A DNA stretch of 63,763 nt, counting the filler, from Craspedostauros australis (Eukaryota): NCBI GenBank assembly GCA_030167865.1. It is 10 parts of 10 records of this genome, joined end to end, with 100 filler letters (N's around TTAATTAATTAA, not from the genome) between each part and the next. Parts side by side here need not be neighbours in the genome. Positions count along the whole stretch, not along the records: positions 20,633 to 39,889 come from JALAGF010004741.1; 9 more parts are not named here. The stretch is one strand, 5' to 3'. The notes under the pieces were generated by a model that was not told where the DNA came from, made no database searches, and was given only the letters and a program-made list of their open reading frames with translations. The position numbers were made by a program, and so were the translations under genes. The stretch's first letter is position 1. Each line of letters begins with the position of its first letter. Below, in pieces: positions 18,996 through 45,200 of the stretch.

Positions 18996-19095
18996 NNNNN
19001 NNNNNNNNNNNNNNNNNNNNNNNNNNNNNNNNNNNNNNNTTAATTAATTAANNNNNNNNNNNNNNNNNNNNNNNNNNNNNNNNNNNNNNNNNNNN
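18996..19095. other. Artificial contig linker N44-TTAATTAATTAA-N44 (first of nine; 12-mers at 19040, 20577, 39934, 43673, 45988, 49185, 52042, 59072, 60889)
   Basis: Identical 12-mer with stops in all six frames, each time flanked by N runs for a total of 100 bp. Confidence 0.97.
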
Positions 19096-28400: not shown

Positions 28401-31400
28401 CGCGACGACGGGGCATCCAGCGCTTGGCACCAGCTATCGTATACCTTCCAAAATCTGATCCGATTGCTATGTGCAGACGAATGGCCAGTCATATTCGTGT
28501 TGGATGGTACGTGCGTGTGTGTGTGTGCGTTTGCGTGTTACATTCTCTCACCAGCCTGAAGCAGCACTTTGATTCCTTCACCCTTCACCTCACCCTTCGT
28601 TTGCATAACTTTTCATCCGGTTCCGTGCCATTCACCTTCGGCGCACCTCTGCACAATAGACATCCAATGGGCCGATCAGGCATCTATCGATTTGATACCA
28701 TCGCTGCTGGTGGATTCATCCATCAAGCAGCTGTTCTTCATCGCTATGTACCGTTCGAACGAGCTGGCCTCCAACCAAACTGTCCGTGATCGAATACACC
28801 AGCTGCAGAACAGCAACGGAAACCGATACGAAACGATTACGCTTGGCGATTTCAACCAAGAGCACGTCACGCAATACTTACGAAGATTGCTACGGCATGA
28901 TGATGATCCTGGGGGTGGTGCTGCCCGCGAAAACCATTCCAATCCCAATGGCGACAGCGACGAAATACAGGATGTGTCCCAAAATGATAAGATCTGCGAC
29001 AGCTCAGTCAACGATTTCACTGATTCTGCTGCACGTCCGCAAAACAATGACAGCAGTACGAGTATGGTTGAGACAGACACTCCTCAGACCAACCGCACGC
29101 AGACCATGCCAACGAGAAAATCATCCATTCTTCCATCACAGCATCAGCTTTCAGCATCATGCTCCATCCATGAAATTGCAACAGTCTTATTTGAAAAGAC
29201 GAACGGCAATTTGTTCTACCTCCGCCATTCACTGGTGCAGCTCCAAAACAAGGGATTCATCCAGTTCGACATGAACAAATGGAGGTGGGTCATCCATTGC
29301 AATGACGTGAGGGAGATCCAGCAGTCACTGGAAGTGGCAGATAACGTTGTAGATTTGGTGACATCGAACCTGCGGTCCCTCCCGAACGTGAGACTCAAGT
29401 ACGTCCTGTTTCTTGCATCCTGCCTGCGGCGGACATCATTTCACTATCGTACCATGTTCCACGTCCTGCAGTGCGAAATTGGAACCCTCCATGATGGTTG
29501 AGAAACCGCACGAAGCCTGTTTCGCGCAGATGCGCAGGATCACGACGGGAACCAAAGCAGTGGACCCAACGCCTTGGCGCATCTGCTTCTCAATTTACTG
29601 AATGAAGCCGTGCACTGCGGGCTGTTGGAGAGCAACGATGATCTTGCGGAGAAGAGCGCTGAGACCGTCGCTGCTTCGCGTGAAGATACCACTTCCGGAG
29701 AGCAGGAACAGACGACGGATCCATCCTTGCGGCACAGCGAGAATGGCTCGACCTCGATTTCTACCTCGGAAATCATCCTCGACCTCGACAGCCGATTCAG
29801 CGTGACATATTCCTTCACGCACGATCGCATCCAATCGGCTGCGAACATGATGATCCCAGAAAATGAAACGCTGCACAACGTCAACGCGAGGGTCGGGAAG
29901 CATTTGCTCAAATTGGCGGCAGATGCAAATCACGGTGAAGATTGGATGTGGTTCACCGCAGTGGATTTGCTGGAGGAATGCTCATCGCAATCAATGCCGT
30001 CTGGAACGTCGCCGGCAACAGCAGCAGGGGCGGCGGTGGCGGCGGCGGTGGAGCCTGCGGATCACAAGGACCTGCCGATTTCGCACCTGGAGCTGCTGGG
30101 GCTAAACTTGAGGGTTGGCGAGACGGCGGTGGAGCTGTCAGCATTTGTTCCCGCGCGGAAGTATCTGCTTCGCGCAAGGGATCTGCTGTTTGCATGTCAT
30201 CCGCCCAATCCATGGCAGAGCCAGTACGCGATGACATTGCGCATCCATGACGAATTGGCAAACGTGGAGATGTTCCTTGGGAATATGGAGGAAGGCAAGG
30301 TGCTGTGTGAGCTGAGCATGCGCAATGCCACCAGCGCGCTGGACAAGTTGCCTTCGTACAGGATATTGGCCATCGCATTCGCCCGTCACGAACGGCATGA
30401 GGAGGCTTTGAAGACCTCTCTGGAATGCTTGTGGATGCTGAAGACATTCCCGCGACGGAGACTCCTGCTTCACATCGCCCGCGACCTGCTTCTGGCGAGA
30501 AAATTCTTCAAGAAGTTCCAAAAGCCGGAGCAACTCCTTGATCTTCCCAACATGGTAGATGAGAAATATCTCCACACCATGACGACGCTGCGGCAGCTGA
30601 GCGAGCCTGCTTTCCATTCCAAACGCATGGGCATCCTGCTGCTCTCCATCCTCCGTCAGATCCGGCTGACAGCAACGCACGGGTTATGTTCGGAGACCCC
30701 GCACGTCTTTGCAGCATACGCAGTGATTTTGAATGGCCCCTTGGGAGATCCGGACGGAGCCAAAAGGATGGTGCAGTTCGCGAAATACGCTCTGCCTCAG
30801 ACGGACTCAAAGATGATCGAAGGACAGACCGAGGTCACCTGCGTGATGTTCGTCGACGGTTGGCGGCTGCCTGTCAAGGAGCTGGTGAAGATGCTCCACC
30901 ACGCTCATGATGCCTCCATGGTGGTCGGTGATCTGCAGACCGGTTACAGGGCATGGGCATTGGCGATCACTACCGCGTACTTATTCGGCGTTCCGCTGGT
31001 GCAATCGCACGATGGCGCCAAGTCGCTCCACAAGCAGCTGGTGTACTACAAGGTCAGCTCCGTCCTGGTTTGCTTTGAGCCCGTGCACGAAGCCATGTTG
31101 CATTTGGCTGGAATTCGCCAAGGGCCGTTGACAACGGATGAAATGCGCCGCATTCCGTCCGCGAAGGCGATCGAGACGTCCGAGATCTTGCGTTGGAGTT
31201 GGTACTGCTGGAGCCGGATGCAGCTCGCTGTGTATTTCGACGTGATGGACATGGCCAAGGCGTTGATCAAGCCATTCAAATCGTTCGGCGAAATCGATTC
31301 GTCGTACGTGGCGGCGACGATCCGGATCTACTTCACGGGATTGGCGCTTTGCCGGCTGGCCCGGTCCACTGGCAAGCGCAAGTATCTGCGGCAAGCTCGG

Positions 31401-31877
31401 AAGGAAATGGCCGAGACGAAGAGCATCGTGCAAGTGAAGGGGCAGAACAGCCTGCATCGATATCTCCTCATGAAGGCAGAAGTAGCAGCTGTGTCAGAAC
31501 CCAACAAGACCTTGAAGGTGAAGGACGCATTTGATACTGCCATCGCAACCGCATCAAAGGCCGGCTTTGTCCATGATGCGGCACTTGCAAATGAAACCGC
31601 TGGGCGCTACTTTCTGCACCTGCAAAAGAATGGATCCGATAATGCCAGCGACGATTTTTGGATCAAGAACTACCTCTCGGATGCCGTCACGAAATACGGC
31701 CAATGGGGAGCCAAAGCCAAGGTCGAGCAACTCCAGGCCACGTACGGCGATCTCTTGCGCAAGGATGCATCAGACGGGGAGACATTCCAGTCCGGTGCCT
31801 TGCACACCACTGCCGTGGAGCCAGCAACACTGTCCAAAACGCACGAGATATTCAACAAGCTTGATCTTGACTCCTGA
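22414..31877 (+). pseudogene. STAND NTPase-TPR paralog 3, disrupted by TAG 22567-22569, a frameshift (or weak 55-nt intron) near 22840, a 5-kb transposon at 23055-28062, and TGA 29499-29501; intron 28507-28659
   Basis: ATG 22414 (ACCATGT), FFGRCDEVERL, Walker A GLLGTGKT, and KPCHLCFGKFGQ (cf. HPCHVGKGKYDQ in paralog 2). After the insertion come AFTAIIGALSDFF, Walker B FVLDD-IQWAD across a phase-1 intron, YSFTHDRIQSAA and YGQWGAKAKV. Confidence 0.85.
23055..28062. mobile_element. Non-autonomous PIF/Harbinger-type DNA transposon, 5008 bp
   Basis: 13-bp perfect TIRs GGAGCAGGGGAAA (23055-23067) / TTTCCCCTGCTCC (28050-28062) and 3-bp TSD CAG (23052-23054, 28063-28065). Removing it restores the host frame (ATAST-DEDGGTN). 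No transposase ORF recognised inside. Confidence 0.85.
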
Positions 31878-34320: not shown

Positions 34321-35457
34321 CTATGATCGTTTGGACTTTGCGTCGGAACCAGCTTCGCTGCTGTTGCGTTCTTCGAGCTTGGCCATAATCATCTTCCAAA
34401 GGATGGAGAATAGGATCGATGACAGAGCATTCCCAATGAGCTTCGTTCCCAACCCTCGGAAGATGAACATCGGTCCCGATTCCTCCAGCAGCATCGAGAA
34501 TGCCTGAAAGTACGTGATCGATTCCTCCGAAGTCTGCTGGAAAGTCTTGACCACGCGCAAACCGTTGGAGGTGAAGTCGGAAACCATACCCGAGACGAGA
34601 CCGATGAACGCGCGCCGCAAGAGCTTCTGCCGCGCCGTCGTGGCCTTCGGCAGCGTCGCATCGAGCTTGTTGTGCGTCGCGAACCATGGATAATGCCCCA
34701 CGAGGTTGGCGCTCCAATTCCCGAACGCGCCGCTGTACAGGCTCAGGACTCCGTACGTGTGCACCTTGTTCATGATCTTCGCCCATCCTTCTTTGCCCGA
34801 TACCTGCAGGCTCGTTTTGAGCGTATCGAGCGGCGTGATGACGATTCTCCACATCGCGGCCATCATCGAGGCGCAGAAGGTGGCGACTTCCACGGATCCC
34901 AGGTGCGGGTATGCCGCAAATATGGCCCGGACGCCTTCATTCGCGGCCGTGTCGCCGAATCTGGACAGCGGTCCCGACAGCAGGGCGAAGGACGCGCCCT
35001 GATAGAAGCGCGCGATGCCGCCCTGAGCGTAGAGTTCTTTGAATGCCTCGGAGATGGAAACGCTGTGCTTGTACTGGTAGTTGAGGACCGTCCGGAGCCA
35101 CATGAGCAGCATGACCTGCAGGATCATGGCGATGAAGCCTGCGGTGCCACCCCGGAAGGCAGATCGAGCTGCCTGGGAGAGGATCTGTCCCATCTTTGGT
35201 GGGCTGGAGGCCGCATCCTTCTGTGTGCTAGAATTGGGGCCCGCTTCTCCTCCTCCTCTTGGGACTGCGGTGACTGCCATCGTGAAAACCTTTGATCCTG
35301 TCACGCGTTCTGCGACGATACTTGCTGCTGCGGCTGCTGCTATTTGGGTTCCTGTTGCTATTGCCGTTGTCGCTGCCGTTGCTGCTGTTGCTTGGAAGAG
35401 ATGAAGTTCGGATGCTTGTATTTGTGCCAAGGCAATTGAGGATGGTGCACTGATCAT
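34321..35457 (-). CDS. Mitochondrial carrier (SLC25) family protein
   Basis: Three carrier repeats: MWLRTVLNYQY...GGIARFYQG, TPLDTLKTSLQ...GVLSLYSG and NGLRVVKTFQQ...FIFRGLGTKL. Start at 35457 or 35280. Confidence 0.9.
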   Translation of the reverse strand: MISAPSSIALAQIQASELHLFQATAATAATTAIATGTQIAAAAAASIVAERVTGSKVFTMAVTAVPRGGGEAGPNSSTQKDAASSPPKMGQILSQAARSAFRGGTAGFIAMILQVMLLMWLRTVLNYQYKHSVSISEAFKELYAQGGIARFYQGASFALLSGPLSRFGDTAANEGVRAIFAAYPHLGSVEVATFCASMMAAMWRIVITPLDTLKTSLQVSGKEGWAKIMNKVHTYGVLSLYSGAFGNWSANLVGHYPWFATHNKLDATLPKATTARQKLLRRAFIGLVSGMVSDFTSNGLRVVKTFQQTSEESITYFQAFSMLLEESGPMFIFRGLGTKLIGNALSSILFSILWKMIMAKLEERNSSEAGSDAKSKRS

Positions 35458-36616: not shown

Positions 36617-37315
36617 TTGTGCGGTAATGGAAGGAGTGCCGTGATGATGATGATGATGGCAATGCTTGTGCGAATCGCGGAACAAGATGATGCATCAGCA
36701 AGGATGGAGCGTACAGCCACGCATGCGCAGCAAGCAACCACCCAGTTGGCGGAGAGTTCACGGGAATATCGCAGCATCACGCAAGCGATGCAACGAAGTC
36801 AGGAGGGCTGAAGGTGTCTGCGAAAATCATGTCGGAATGAAAGGTGCATAGCAATGCAACCAACCAAAAGAAGGACAACGTAGCTCGACGAAGGGATTTT
36901 GCATGAATACAAGACTTGGATGATAATTCATGAGATGGAGGTTGTGCCAGACCCTATTGCGTGAAGCAACTCAGAGACATCAGTCGGATCTGCCTGTTTC
37001 CATCCTGATCCTTCTACGATTAGATACTGTATTCGAATTGAGTAGTCCATGGTAGTGCCTCCCATTTGTGCTTGCCTCTCTATCAATCTTAGAAACGGCG
37101 GTTTCAGTTTTCGTGTACTATCGGCTCGATCCTGAGCACTGTTACCTGCACACAAGACAGAGCGGTGAAGTGTCCACTCATCGATCATCAACCACTATAC
37201 AGCGTACGTACTACTCGTGGAGAGCGAGGAATGTGGAGTATCAGTTATTGGTAAGACTGAGGAATGCAAAACTATAAAAAAGTAGAGCAGAGTCAATGCA
37301 GAATAGAGGCATCGA

Positions 37316-38608
37316 TTACTCAAATTCACCAACGGGCACTGTCGCCTCGCTGCCCAACGGCGGCCCCGTCGACCAGGCCGCCATCTGCTTCTCGAGCAGC
37401 TGCTTGCGCACGCTCTCCGCATGATCCTGCGGCACATGTCGCATGGTCTCCTTCCATTCCGCCACGACGTCACGGCGTTCCTCGATGATCTGCTCGGCGA
37501 GACCCAGCGGATCGGCCAGGCCTGCCTTCTTGCTATCGCAGTACATGACGCTGGGCGATTCGCGCAGCAAGGCGTCCATGAAATCATCGGCCATGCCGTA
37601 TTGCAAGTCGCCGTCGAAGTAATCGGCGACGCGCGACGTGTAGAACTTGGAGAGCCAGTTGTAGGAGACCTCCTTGTCTTCACCGGCGGCTCGGAATTTG
37701 CGCAGCAGCCTGTGGATGCTGGCCTGGGTGCAGAGGTTGTAGAGGAGGTCGAAGTTTCCCTTGCGGAATGGGGAAGACGCTCCCGCCGCGTTGAAGGCCG
37801 ACTGCTCCATGATGTTGACGGCGGTGCGTTCGAAGGCGAGCACGGAGGGCTTCTGGGCCATCTCCATGTCGGATTTGGTGCGATCTTCCTTGGATATGGC
37901 AAAGTAGGATGCGAGGATTTGGTCGTTGGCGGCCACGAGGAAATCCAAGTCCTGACACATCTCCTGCGCGATCTGCTCGCGCACGCTGAGGATGCGGGAT
38001 GTGAGGGACACGGGGTCGATGTCGATTTCGAATTCGACGTACCGGTCTTCGAGGTAAGGATTGTGCTTGGACCAGCCCTTGTGTCCCTTGCCGGAACGCT
38101 TGGCGGAGACGACGACGACATCCTTGGGACGGTCCATCATGGCGAGAAGCGGTGCCTCCCACGTTCCACCGAATCGTTGCAGGTAGCCGGCGCCCGTTCC
38201 GTGGTATTGCAGCTGGTTCTTGGTGTCGAGGAAATCCTCCATCCACTTGACGCTGTGGGGATCCCGCACCGACGTCAGCAGGTACATGAAGGACTGGATG
38301 GATCGTTGCGTGAGGAAGTTGCGGATATCCGTGCGCGCGTCGTTGTGCTGTTGCGCCGCCTCCTCGTCGCTATGGCCGACCATGGCGATGCGCGACGATC
38401 GGGCAAACGGGGTCGCTGCATTTGGATGCAATGCGGCCAACCTGGTTGGAGATGAGACGCTGATGCCGATAGAAAAGGCATCGGCGACAGTGGAAGGCGT
38501 TGACGATGACATCTTTGTGGTTGTGGAACTTGATTCGAAGGAGGCCAGCATTGCTGTCGCCAGCAGTAGCGACCGGCGGACGCGCCCAATGAATGGAGGT
38601 GATGGCAT
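37316..38608 (-). CDS. Predicted plastid-targeted protein with two RbcX-like repeats
   Basis: 430-aa intronless ORF with strong coding bias. It has a signal-peptide-like LLLATAMLA, a DAF motif and a Ser/Arg-rich transit-like region. Repeat 1: NFLTQRSIQ...KWMEDF...RILSVREQIAQE..DLDFL. Repeat 2: NLCTQASIHRLL...NWLSKF...DDFMDALLRE...LAEQIIEER. The CDS is well supported; the RbcX assignment is moderate. Confidence 0.75.
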   Translation of the reverse strand: MPSPPFIGRVRRSLLLATAMLASFESSSTTTKMSSSTPSTVADAFSIGISVSSPTRLAALHPNAATPFARSSRIAMVGHSDEEAAQQHNDARTDIRNFLTQRSIQSFMYLLTSVRDPHSVKWMEDFLDTKNQLQYHGTGAGYLQRFGGTWEAPLLAMMDRPKDVVVVSAKRSGKGHKGWSKHNPYLEDRYVEFEIDIDPVSLTSRILSVREQIAQEMCQDLDFLVAANDQILASYFAISKEDRTKSDMEMAQKPSVLAFERTAVNIMEQSAFNAAGASSPFRKGNFDLLYNLCTQASIHRLLRKFRAAGEDKEVSYNWLSKFYTSRVADYFDGDLQYGMADDFMDALLRESPSVMYCDSKKAGLADPLGLAEQIIEERRDVVAEWKETMRHVPQDHAESVRKQLLEKQMAAWSTGPPLGSEATVPVGEFE

Positions 38609-39708: not shown

Positions 39709-39989
39709 TAGCCCAGCCACGATGGGCACATTCCACAAAGCCATCAACGGGGAACGATGTGGACGTCACTGAATGACGAATCAGAACACTAATACTTATC
39801 GTCAACTTGGCGTGACATGCCTTTGATAATCCTCTGTCGTCGCGTTGTTGCGCGGGATTTGCTCTTGCTCTTTCTGTCGTCCAATCGGCNNNNNNNNNNN
39901 NNNNNNNNNNNNNNNNNNNNNNNNNNNNNNNNNTTAATTAATTAANNNNNNNNNNNNNNNNNNNNNNNNNNNNNNNNNNNNNNNNNNNN

Positions 39990-40700
39990 CGTGCTGAGAT
40001 CATCTGTGTCGATGCTGACATGAGAGAGGACGACGCGTAGGAGCGTTGGTCCATCCATGAGTCCGTTGATCTCATATGTGCTGCGCTGCGGCAGGATACG
40101 GTTGACGAGGTTGGGGCTCAGCGAGTTGAGGATGGCGACACCTATGAGGTGCGCGGCTTGCTTCTCGACGCTGTCATTGATGTGACGCAATGTGGCACTG
40201 GTGCGCACATGGTCGATGGTGGTGAGTGGATAGTTGTCNAGGATGTTGTACATGCCTGTTGTTGTGGCGACTTGGAAGATGTCAATGCATTGCATCATCA
40301 TCGCGCGAGTGCGAATGTTGGCAAGGAAGACGTTGATGTTCTCTGGAGCACCTTCGAACTTGTCGTCGCTGAGCTTCTCTTGTGCTGTCTTGATGAGAGC
40401 AGCGCCTGTCTTTGTTGTTGGGTCGATGAGAGATCCATATGGTGTTACAGCAAACTGTGCTGGTTGCTGGTTGGCTGGCGGATTCGGATTAGCTTGGACA
40501 ACTGGCTGTGCAGCTGCTGCTGCTTGGACTTGTGCTGCCACTTGCTGCTGGATGATTTGGACAAGCTGTGCCATGTTCAGAGCGATGGGCTGTCCTCCTG
40601 CTTGTGGTGGTTGCTGTGCTGCCTGTGGTTGTGCAGCTGCTTGTCCTGCAGGTGCGGTTGCGGCTGTGGCGTCGTTGGGTTGGTTGCCTTGATCCGCCAT
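39990..40700 (-). mobile_element. Second Ty1/copia gag N-terminal fragment (different diatom copia lineage), truncated by contig end
   Basis: Q/A/P-rich N-terminus, then FAVTPYGSLIDPTTKTGAALIKTAQEKL..DKFEGAPENINVFLANIRTRA...DNY and MDGPTLLRVVL. Confidence 0.65.
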
Positions 40701-42240: not shown

Positions 42241-45200
42241 CATGTATGTTCAAGATTTACATGTATATGTGCATCGTTCCCCCATTATTCTCTTATATGT
42301 GTTGACGGTAAAACTACACTCGTTTCAATAGTATGATGTGATTTGTCAGAATCACAGTGGAAATAAAACACATAAAAATAAGCAGAATTTCTGGAGGTAA
42401 TTTGCAATCAACGATTTCTGAGAGAATCAGGAATATCGTCCGTCCATCCATCAATGGAAACGTATGGTATCGAGCAAAGCTCGAGGTACCTCCCAACTAA
42501 ACCCCAGATGACGACATCATCTGAGAGACCATCGCATCATTGGCAGAATGTGACATCTGGAGAGCAGAAGGATGCTTACTGACATCAACAGGATGTCATC
42601 ACGTCACCATGTTGACATCTGTCTCCATGTCAGAAGCAGAAGGTGAAGAATTGATGGCCAAAGGACATCGAGATCATGGATACATGAAGAGGAGTTCAAG
42701 TGGTAAGTACTTGTGGAGTAGGAACCAGCGATGAACTCATGGAGTGTCGAATGTGGAGTATGCATCAAACACGGAGTATGGTGTAATGCAAATACATGAT
42801 ATGGAGAGAGAGAGAGAGAGAGAATACGATAGCAGCGAGAGAGCATCTCGCGCACTGACTCATAGCCGGAGACCCAATCTACGAAACAGACAGCCGCGCT
42901 GAGAGCATCGGGCAAGAGAATGGACACTGAGAGGATCGGAGTGCCAACGTAATGAAATAGCAAACAGAACGACTATCAACAACACCATCTTCCACGATCG
43001 TAGGTATCCATTCACGGAACTTGCCAACATTCGTCACCATCATCACTATCACCACATACAACAACAACAGCCGCAATTGTGGCGGAAGCAACAGATACGA
43101 AGCAAACAGAGCAGCAGAAGAGCGAAGAAGAGGAAGAGATGGAAGCAAAGGATCGAGACCACAGAATGTGGTGTGAGGCCAACACCACAAGAAGACATGC
43201 CTAGAACAAAGAGATGGTCCTGGAAGAAGTGAGGGATGAGATTCGGACGGGGATGAGATGGAGACTGATGGCGAAAATGGATGAACACAATATGGACTAA
43301 TTAGGGAGATATCGCATGTAAAATGAAGCCACCCCTGGAACCTGTCGTGGTGACAACCAGTGGGGAGCTCTCCCCAAATGTTCGCGTTCGCGTTGGATCT
43401 TGGAGGGACTGAAATAATCAAATTAGTCATACAATGACGTCATCAATACTGCCCTAGACGGCTGTCTAGATAGACTATTGGTGACACAAGACCTAGACTT
43501 GTGCACAATAGATACTAGTCAACAATAAGTCACCCAAGCAATCACGTTGTTAGTCTCACCTACGAGTCGTGTTAACAATCCATCCAGTCGGATCAGTCAA
43601 GATTCGAACTGAAGTCGGATTAGTCAAGNNNNNNNNNNNNNNNNNNNNNNNNNNNNNNNNNNNNNNNNNNNNTTAATTAATTAANNNNNNNNNNNNNNNN
43701 NNNNNNNNNNNNNNNNNNNNNNNNNNNNTGATTGGCGTGCCGACTGAAGGGTTCGCAACCCTGTTCAAGCATCAGTTCGCGTTGTCATTCGTTTCTGTTT
43801 CCGCTTAAAGGAATCCAATCGAAGACGTTTTCGACGGTTATTGCGACCCTTTTCATATAACGTAGAAGGAGAACACATCGAGTTCGCCAAAGATATAAGC
43901 GGGGAGCCGGCGACGTTGGCTTCGATGGTGTACCGCCGTTTCTCCCCACATCGTTTCTGAATGGAACAGCCGTTGACAAAACAAAATCGAATGGACTGGT
44001 TCTGCGGACTGGGGAGAGAGCGTCAGACACTTTCACAGAGCGAGGAAGTTGTGTGGGTTTTGTCCACGGCGCGTGGAACGACGAATGCATGTACATGCCG
44101 GTACTCGTATCAACGTGCACAACAGGCACACCTACGAAGGAGGTAGCGATGACCACGAAATGTGCCTACGATCCACTCAAAGGTACCAACCGACAGAGCA
44201 CCACCAAATGTCATGATGACACAGAGCGAAATCGAATGGGATCAATGTCCAGGCCTCCTTCTCACTCCGTTTCCCTTCATCGTTTTCTGAACCTCGTCAT
44301 GTTCGGAACTGTTTCTGTTCATTTCTGCAAGGGAAGCGCGGTAAAGTCTATTTTTGCGTCGATTTTCGCTTTGTTCACGCTTGGGGTGTGTTGCGCGGTT
44401 TTTGGGTCTGTCGAGTCATGCACTCATGGGACTACTAGAGCACGCCTTTCCCGTGTCGACATGACGTCGCGCTGATTTGCGTTCGTGGTTGCGATGCCGC
44501 ACACTGTTCGCACATGCCAATGATGTCCCCTTTTCTCGTTCCACCCTGTTGTGTCTGTGCCAACACATCCCCATCACAGACCCACGACACAACACGACGC
44601 AGCATCGACGCAGTCACACATTTGCTTTCCCTCTTTGGAAAGAAGTGGCTGATTTGCAATCATCATTCGTGTTCTCCCGTCCCCTTGCTCAGACAACTTT
44701 CTTACTTGTCCAAGCGGTTCGTTTTCGCACCGTCGTTGATTACCACAGAGCGCTCCTCCAACCACAAGCTGTCCGTTGTCTTACTAGCCTACTGACCTTC
44801 GTGTCATCAACCGTCGCGATCTGCACCGGGAGCAGCGCCATTCCTCCACGTTCCTGTATTAATGCGCACTACGTTACTGCGTGATCACTATCGTGCTCGT
44901 GTCCGTTGTCGAAGGTGGTGAGCCCGCCCCCGTCCAACGTTTGTTTGGCTGTGCGGCTCAGGTGCTCGTTGGTGATTCTCTGGGTTGTTCGCATGACAAA
45001 GTGGGACTCTCTTCGGCAAGCGTTGGTGTCTGGCGGTCTTCCTTCTTCGGGGTGTTGTCACGACGGCACGAAATTCGCTTTGCGTTCCTCGCGATGCTTG
45101 TCCAGTGCGTCCGAGATGCAAACTCAGAATATAGTATTTGCAACGTCAAACAACGGAACATGGCGCTTTACCGAGTACCCCATCAGTGCAATTGTTTGCT

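Follow-up and report, generated by a model that had tools for sequence, protein, structure and literature searches.

A nuclear-encoded tandem RbcX-type protein of the diatom Craspedostauros australis, predicted to be plastid-imported and a candidate Rubisco large-subunit binding factor

Described RbcX-type systems and the tandem protein

RbcX accompanies form IB Rubisco, in cyanobacteria usually with its gene between rbcL and rbcS, and promotes assembly of the RbcL8 core before being displaced by RbcS. Here we describe a gene of Craspedostauros australis (assembly GCA_030167865.1), located at 37316..38608 on the minus strand of the 63,763-nucleotide stretch of joined genome records that was analyzed as a whole (hereafter the window), whose product, P0001 (the window protein), carries two diverged RbcX-type domains in one chain. 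According to the accessible text of PMC4549274, RbcX is an arc-shaped homodimer of ~15 kDa subunits, with a hydrophobic cleft at its centre for binding the RbcL sequence EIKFEF(E/D) and a conserved corner Gln and Arg that touch the neighbouring RbcL; in CrRbcX-IIa the corner Arg is essential, the R118A variant being inactive, and the N-terminal tail binds the protein's own cleft.

The described RbcX proteins (PF02341; cyanobacterial RbcX / RbcX-I and eukaryotic RbcX-II; PDB 2PEM, 3RG6, 4GR2, 5BS1) resemble the window protein in the helical fold of its second unit, in the full-domain profile similarity of both units, in the Arg/Arg-Glu signature of helix 4 of the first unit, in the predicted plastid location and in the presence of two RbcX-type modules per functional particle. 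RbcX is, however, a homodimer, whereas the window protein joins two modules of 15% identity in a single chain, each with a beta-hairpin added between its third and fourth helices. In the family of the window protein the cleft Tyr is replaced, the corner Gln is lost and a conserved C-terminal F-E/Q is added; the gene is nuclear, single-exon and set among unrelated neighbours, and a company of form IB Rubisco is not expected for it. The lineages of the named relatives (diatoms, Aureoumbra) carry instead red-type Rubisco, as stated in the sections of PMC9833100 that were accessible.

Two other systems offer partial parallels. The RbcX-like protein UM003_0241 of Ulva is described, in the part of the preprint that is accessible (bioRxiv 10.64898/2026.07.16.738900), as carrying a Rubisco-binding motif and localizing to the pyrenoid matrix. 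It combines an RbcX-type domain with a short linear motif, as do some relatives of the window protein that bear SYLDxLS, and the family at large conserves a terminal motif; nonetheless, as far as that text goes, the Ulva protein has one RbcX domain, a green-type motif and a form IB host, while the window protein is a tandem from a red plastid lineage with other motifs. DPC2 (PF25195) is described in the accessible text of bioRxiv 10.1101/2023.10.26.564148 as a Rubisco interactor located in the pyrenoid matrix of T. pseudonana and as a hub of the interaction network. The SYLDxLS repeats of some family members match the DPC2 model, whereas the window protein has neither the match nor the motif.

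Diatoms and red algae possess form ID Rubiscos whose kinetics are attractive. In the accessible sections of a 2022 review (PMC9833100) these enzymes are said not to have been assembled heterologously, for which unknown chaperones are blamed, and homologues of RbcX, Raf1, Raf2 and BSD2 are said not to have been found in organisms with red-type Rubisco; these statements agree with an earlier note on this DNA, made from the sequence alone, which had called the form ID assembly factors poorly defined and heterologous assembly hard. The literature on RbcX-like domains or folds that we found concerns cyanobacteria, the green lineage or alpha-carboxysomes, and no description of an RbcX-type protein from a red-plastid lineage was found in the full-text literature, whose coverage excludes most subscription journals. 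The novelty lies in the tandem arrangement of a chaperone fold already known, found in a lineage said to lack it.

Two RbcX-type domains in one chain

In the AlphaFold2 (AF2) model of the whole chain, with a predicted local distance difference test score (pLDDT) of 83.8 and a predicted template modelling score (pTM) of 0.78, most 10-residue blocks between residues 81 and 410 lie above 90, and the whole core is one confident predicted body. Because the pTM reaches this value despite ~85 disordered residues, the two units also appear to be placed confidently against each other in the model. Unit 1 comprises residues 88-248 (37865..38347; this and the following features of the gene all lie on the minus strand), with modelled helices at 95-113, 117-127 and 152-158 and a 50-residue helix at 199-248, and unit 2 comprises residues 278-414 (37367..37777), with helices at 282-324, 339-349, 367-390 and 392-414. 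The linker between them (residues 249-277; 37778..37864) varies in length and sequence within the family and contains a short model helix at 263-273; residues 236-280 showed no similarity to unit 1 (hhalign E 0.15). Beyond unit 2 follows a flexible C-terminal tail (residues 415-430; 37319..37366), over which the pLDDT drops to 76 and then to 52, and which ends in Phe-Glu.

An insertion had been noticed in unit 1 from the sequence, and in the model it takes the form of a beta-hairpin (residues 163-197; 38018..38122) with strands E163-170 and E190-197. A shorter hairpin occupies the corresponding position in unit 2 (E353-356 / E362-365), and no residue of the nine RbcX reference proteins introduced below aligned by hhalign to either hairpin. 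The loop of the unit 1 hairpin is nearly invariant in the family alignment at K170, R171, G173, G175, H176, G178, W179, S180, K181, N183 and P184, and is missing from many of the distant family members.

Compared as single sequences by BLASTP (residues 86-250 versus 281-430), the two halves were similar at chance level only (best E 0.54, 8/36 identical), which does not prove a repeat, and a comparison of profiles was therefore needed. Profiles taken from an 83-sequence family alignment (residues 88-240 for unit 1, 275-412 for unit 2) were aligned by hhalign with a probability of 97.8% and an E-value of 1.3e-12, over 119 columns at 15% identity; among 21 controls (1 reversed, 10 column-shuffled and 10 block-shuffled) the best E-value was 0.0037 and the probability did not exceed 8.9%. 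By these profiles the internal duplication is real and ancient, and the register is the one in which the earlier note had proposed two internally similar units; the nine motifs quoted there are all present, at residues 97, 121, 154, 205 and 220 in unit 1 and at 291, 317, 343 and 370 in unit 2.

As a reference for RbcX we used nine open reading frames (ORFs) that follow rbcL in cyanobacterial rbcL-rbcX-rbcS operons, found through a degenerate pattern of the RbcL EIKFEF motif and all assigned to Pfam RbcX with E-values of 5.1e-52 or better. Against these nine sequences hhalign gave, for unit 1, a probability of 89.2% and an E-value of 2.2e-6 over 97 columns (RbcX positions 7-108), and for unit 2 a probability of 83.4% and an E-value of 8.5e-6 over 105 columns (RbcX positions 3-112), while the best E-values of the 31 controls run for each unit were 5.5e-4 and 7.2e-3, respectively. 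Pfam RbcX (PF02341) matched the window protein directly at residues 201-226 (E 0.003, 18.2 bits), where unit 1 bears the signature R205-x4-R210-E211, and the NCBIfam RbcX model did so at E 0.012. In 21/30 relatives Pfam RbcX was found at E<=1, the best at 7.4e-4 and all of them under the cut-off; in other members weak matches fell elsewhere in either unit (for instance profile positions 15-88 in P0342, 12-48 in P0049 and 68-103 in P0203). A search started from P0234, itself a relative of the window protein (E 8.4e-36), led to P0387, P0406 and P0410, which bear precomputed PF02341.21 labels; P0406 scores 29.5 bits, above the 27-bit cut-off of the family, the second unit of P0387 matches profile positions 12-93 (E 8.8e-6, 26.4 bits) and P0410 reaches 25.0 bits.

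When the whole-chain model was compared with PDB by Foldseek, the only matches with a target template modelling score (TMt) above 0.32 were AtRbcX1 (4gr2_B; probability 0.90, TMt 0.61) and RbcX (2py8_A; probability 0.91, TMt 0.57). Since these ranked 31st and 44th by E-value, in a search where none reached E<=0.001, unit 2 was folded alone (residues 271-415; pLDDT 91.4). The resulting model found RbcX in 25/27 of the matches listed, with probabilities of 0.95-1.00, TMt values of 0.58-0.70 and root-mean-square deviations of 3.5-6.5 A, at E-values of 0.0099-0.25, none of them <=0.001. The 25 RbcX rows include 20 titled RbcX, three that are 105-111-residue chains of RbcL-RbcX complexes and two titled ORF134, which we take to be Synechocystis RbcX. 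The RbcX fold, a four-helix bundle with a C-terminal helix, is matched by unit 2 directly, and for unit 1 it is supported by the profile and the whole-chain search. The nearest named clusters in ESM Atlas (ranks 1-3 for unit 1) are likewise all RbcX, with scores of 0.83-0.88 that, being below 0.9, serve as leads only. On profile and model evidence the two units share ancestry with each other and with RbcX, as diverged domains of the RbcX type. That both units follow the pattern of cyanobacterial RbcX, as first read from the sequence, agrees with the whole-domain hhalign alignments, with Pfam and with the fold comparison (unit 2 alone and whole chain), in which the predicted fold turned out not to be unrelated to RbcX.

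Large-subunit binding and the alternatives

The evidence for the structure is far stronger than that for any function. Most likely the protein binds the large subunit of Rubisco, acting either to chaperone assembly or as a pyrenoid adaptor, with a changed client as the main rival reading, and we put at roughly 50% the probability that this nuclear-encoded plastid tandem RbcX-fold protein acts as a Rubisco large-subunit binding factor, be it a form ID chaperone or a recruitment adaptor. The overall interpretation offered in the earlier note, namely a single-chain pseudo-dimeric RbcX that may be one of the missing red-lineage factors or have a new client, is partly supported. In the mechanism that we propose, the mature part of the protein (~residues 85-430) would be a single chain of two diverged RbcX-type helical domains, in which the covalent tandem would replace the RbcX homodimer and yield an obligatory asymmetric pseudo-dimer. 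This would bind the large subunit in the stroma or in the pyrenoid, to chaperone the assembly of form ID Rubisco or to serve as its recruitment adaptor, and R205 of unit 1 would be the surviving RbcX corner arginine, contacting the neighbouring RbcL. The remodelled cleft, with Thr-Gln in place of Thr-Tyr in both units, would accept a peptide other than EIKFEF or bind it in another mode, and the terminal Phe-Glu/Gln, on its flexible tail, could occupy the cleft of the same chain until the tail is displaced by a client. In other family members, repeats of the DPC2-type SYLDxLS motif would anchor this module in the matrix of the pyrenoid.

The residues on which RbcX function depends were mapped by transferring the hhalign register onto the 83-sequence family alignment. 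PDB titles name Y17A/Y20L (2pej) and Q29A among the RbcX mutants that have been probed, and positions 17 and 20 are aromatic in 9/9 of the cyanobacterial RbcX. RbcX T19 corresponds to Thr in unit 1 (57/83, with Asn in 17/83) and in unit 2 (77/83). Unit 1 retains the Arg that opens helix 4 as R205 (82/83), the Arg that follows is kept in both units (R210, 82/83, in unit 1; R378, 81/83, in unit 2), and the following Glu is conserved in unit 1 (E211, 72/83) and variable in unit 2. The helix-4-start Arg of Nostoc RbcX, R69, is probably the essential Arg of the literature (CrRbcX-IIa R118). On this alignment unit 1 retains the helix-4 signature, and the lining of the cleft is different yet equally conserved. 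Loci with an EIKFEF motif in alphaproteobacteria were also considered as a source of red-type RbcL tails, and were set aside as uninformative when their Rubisco proved to belong to green-type form IA; downstream of it lie CbbQ-like AAA+ genes or shell genes.

Outside the two domains the family carries short motifs of its own. An aromatic residue followed by Glu, Gln or Asp closes the chain in 256/315 of the family proteins with a complete C-terminal region (FE in 124, FQ in 124), preceded by a tail of 12-286 residues, which in the window protein is flexible in the model. In this the conserved Phe-Glu/Gln resembles a docking motif placed at a chain end; that it docks in the cleft of the protein itself is speculative, and suggested by the N-terminal tail of CrRbcX-IIa, which is bound in this way. 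The second motif, G/S-Y-L-D-x-L/V-S, occurs 41 times in 28/364 family proteins, compared with 1.2 occurrences expected from 200 shuffles (maximum 4). Its carriers include P0287 (residues 121-245), P0061, P0063, P0077, P0085, P0088, P0096, P0098, P0123, P0133 and P0258, and the repeats lie mostly in acidic N-terminal extensions of subfamily A members of 465-520 residues. In P0287, a member of subfamily B, four copies stand within a ~190-residue internal loop insertion that matches Pfam DPC2 (PF25195) with an E-value of 1.5e-15 between positions 8 and 101 of the 105-position profile, with 57.9 bits, below the 70-bit cut-off of that family. SYLDxLS is possibly a sticker motif for the diatom pyrenoid or for Rubisco, and the DPC2-type repeats lend the Rubisco and pyrenoid context of the family an indirect support.

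Several results weigh against a Rubisco-binding RbcX descendant. The window protein lies below the gathering cut-off of Pfam RbcX (18.2 vs 27 bits), a sequence search of PDB, with the single sequence and with a 30-sequence profile, returned 0 matches at E<=10, and to these come the low ranks and modest E-values of RbcX in the Foldseek searches described above. Most of the residues with which RbcX recognizes RbcL are replaced: Y17 corresponds in unit 1 to Phe (48/83) or Leu (29/83), with Tyr in 2/83, and in unit 2 to Leu (79/83); Y20 corresponds to Gln in both units (77/83 and 72/83); Q29 is Leu in unit 1 (74/83) and variable in unit 2, where the helix-4-start Arg is variable too. DPC2 was matched weakly (E 0.002-0.03) in 4/40 other long members, and the window protein has no SYLDxLS, strict or loose, and no DPC2 match at E<=10. 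The diatom pyrenoid study, with its 36 candidates from co-immunoprecipitation with Rubisco and 46 network nodes, contains 0 occurrences of "RbcX" or of chaperones in its accessible text (bioRxiv 10.1101/2023.10.26.564148). Finally, the accessible sections of PMC9833100 present the betaE-betaF hairpin of RbcS as a built-in substitute of RbcX in red-type Rubisco, and the need for an RbcX-type factor is weakened accordingly.

Part of this evidence suits a true RbcX descendant with a changed client, such as the terminal peptide of another plastid protein or a pyrenoid component, and with no role in Rubisco assembly, a serious possibility even if a somewhat unlikely one. The RbcL-recognition residues have given way to Q101, Q105, L110, Q295 and H299, which are equally invariant, so that a conserved but different binding surface is indicated, and since the cleft residues are replaced by other conserved residues a changed ligand or binding mode is likely. 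The GHGGWSKNNPYL hairpin loop and the terminal F-E/Q, both new, conserved and without an equivalent in RbcX, point the same way, as does the argument that red-type Rubisco does not need RbcX (PMC9833100, in its accessible sections). The R-x4-R-E signature in helix 4 of unit 1 is, on the other hand, almost invariant, some family members have acquired motifs of DPC2, a Rubisco interactor, and all the characterized RbcX-fold proteins met in the accessible portions of the literature act on Rubisco. The same DPC2-type repeats would suit a protein that binds the assembled holoenzyme and organizes or regulates the pyrenoid matrix, more similar to the Ulva protein than to cyanobacterial RbcX: they stand at differing positions, in the N-terminal extensions of subfamily A and in the internal loop of P0287 in subfamily B, and both DPC2, as a hub, and the Ulva RbcX-like protein are placed in the pyrenoid matrix by the accessible parts of the respective preprints. 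Such a role seems quite improbable, however, for a family in which the window protein and most members (336/364) have no such motif, and the linkers are reported to differ between pennate and centric pyrenoids (bioRxiv 10.1101/2023.10.26.564148, accessible text). That the RbcX resemblance is convergent and the protein an unrelated helical repeat protein is extremely improbable, for although the window protein is under the Pfam cut-off, Foldseek E-values are 0.01 or worse, Atlas scores stay below 0.9 and helical bundles yield many weak matches, four independent routes converge on the same register (the Pfam hidden Markov model, with one member above its cut-off, the controlled hhalign comparisons, the Foldseek search with unit 2 and the language-model neighbours).

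An extended form of the large-subunit binding hypothesis can be imagined, which we regard as unlikely as a whole. The tandem family would be the missing lineage-specific RbcL chaperone or adaptor of secondary red plastids, clamping form ID RbcL dimers through the Arg corner of unit 1 and the remodelled cleft, with the F-E/Q end as a pseudo-substrate that gates the cleft; SYLDxLS, shared with DPC2, would be in diatoms what the Rubisco-binding motif is in green algae, repeatedly recruited for delivery to the pyrenoid, and co-expression of the tandem protein would enable heterologous assembly. A diatom and pelagophyte family of clear RbcX ancestry, with predicted plastid targeting, contradicts, by itself, the letter of the statement that no RbcX homologue is present, as worded in the accessible sections of PMC9833100, and it gives a name to a specific candidate gene for the missing helper of red-type Rubisco. 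A chaperone that is normally a homodimer, here fused and asymmetric, has a structural interest of its own, and the link between SYLDxLS and DPC2 provides a testable candidate for addressing proteins to the pyrenoid of centric diatoms. Should the client not be Rubisco, the protein would still represent a re-used RbcX fold.

The family, the gene and its surroundings

The family is large: in an exhaustive search 717 clusters (50% identity) reached E<=1e-3, 171 of them with E<=1e-30, and none of the 120 relatives listed bears a precomputed Pfam domain. The named close relatives are all diatoms: a Staurosira-type MMETSP entry, Cylindrotheca, Nitzschia, Pseudo-nitzschia and Fistulifera; the tag "CCRYP" presumably denotes a Cyclotella-type entry, and one further tag, Psemu1, is a JGI code left unexpanded. 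These names fit a diatom nuclear origin of the window. In diatoms the family has at least two subfamilies. The group of the window protein, which has the loop insertion, was designated subfamily A, and a second group without the insertion subfamily B; the latter gave 309 matches at E<=1e-3, the named ones from Mayamaea, Amphora, Seminavis, Epithemia, Cylindrotheca and Pseudo-nitzschia. Both lists contain one protein of Cylindrotheca fusiformis, P0007 among the relatives of the window protein and P0348 among subfamily B, and the two subfamilies are therefore paralogues. A third and more distant branch includes a protein of the pelagophyte Aureoumbra together with Thalassiosira and Attheya entries. 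In the unit 1 loop, the pattern KR-G-G-H-G-W-S-K-N-P-Y-L is found in subfamily A and in the pelagophyte-containing branch, and not in subfamily B. Both units were kept in 22/22 members inspected across the branches. The named relatives set a lower bound to the taxonomic range, in a survey that did not cover red algae, haptophytes and cryptophytes; of the distribution across red-plastid lineages that had been envisaged at the outset, the part that stands is the presence in diatoms and in at least one pelagophyte.

Short relatives of 197-237 residues, three of them labelled RbcX, were considered as possible stand-alone forms and rejected as truncated predictions with junk sequence after NNPYL-E/Q or helix 4; stand-alone RbcX in these algae is therefore unsupported, in a survey that included no length-directed search. 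P0413-P0418, P0406 and P0410 match the family as far as NNPYL-E/Q or helix 4, beyond which comes an unrelated sequence that starts with Val; this suggests an intron at this point in the species concerned; the window gene has no intron there. P0070 of Pseudo-nitzschia multistriata, a full-length member, is named "Selenoprotein O" in UniRef, a name to which the family alignment gives no support and which looks like a mis-annotation.

The gene itself (37316..38608, minus strand) is complete and single-exon, with 430 codons and a TAA stop (37316-37318) in an uninterrupted ORF for which no intron is needed. The window protein has 248 homologues at E<=1e-3, the closest 77% identical, and for this reason the frame is regarded as a real gene; tblastn over the whole window found no second copy. 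Two further long ORFs overlap it, one at 37195..38121 on the minus strand in another frame and one of 344 residues at 37421..38455 on the plus strand. The latter, antisense to the gene and with no family match, was regarded as a shadow ORF, which probably arises from the GC-rich codon usage of the real gene.

The leader had been read as bipartite-like, and its composition bears this out. A signal-peptide-like segment (residues 1-24; 38537..38608, minus strand; pLDDT <50) is arranged as a basic stretch, the hydrophobic run LLLATAMLA as h-region and an Ala-Ser/Phe junction, and reads RRSLLLATAMLAS followed by F, with LAS directly before the Phe; its best 9-residue hydropathy window, 2.42, falls on residues 14-22, ahead of the small-residue/Phe junction ASF, of the type that we take to be the "ASAFAP" of diatom bipartite plastid presequences. 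A transit-peptide-like, Ser/Thr-rich region follows (residues 25-84; 38357..38536, minus strand; pLDDT 39-54), variable and unaligned across the family, with 13 Ser/Thr, 2 acidic and 1 basic among the first 25 residues past the junction; residues 1-78 are disordered in the AF2 model. A comparable h-region and small-residue/aromatic junction were recognized in 32/42 relatives by a crude home-made script run with no negative control, which scored the 42 of the 83 alignment rows with a complete Met-start N-terminus and a recognizable core and left aside the other 41, without Met start or core pattern. By its sequence the leader is built like the bipartite plastid presequences of diatoms, and the protein is predicted to be imported into the plastid.

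The neighbouring genes are unrelated. A mitochondrial carrier family gene lies at 34324-35457, on the minus strand as the window gene and ~1.9 kb downstream of its 3' end (Pfam Mito_carr E 6.5e-22, three repeats), and a family scan gave a weak TPR match at 29847-31874 on the plus strand. A 252-residue ORF at 39942-40700 (minus strand), with a Gln/Ala/Pro-rich N-terminus, enters a run of N's, and its readable part has no Pfam match. The window contains 23 N-runs, nine of which occur as pairs of 44 bases set 12 bases apart (as at 18996-19039 and 19052-19095, 39890-39933 and 39946-39989, 43629-43672 and 43685-43728); these paired runs look like masking rather than assembly gaps.

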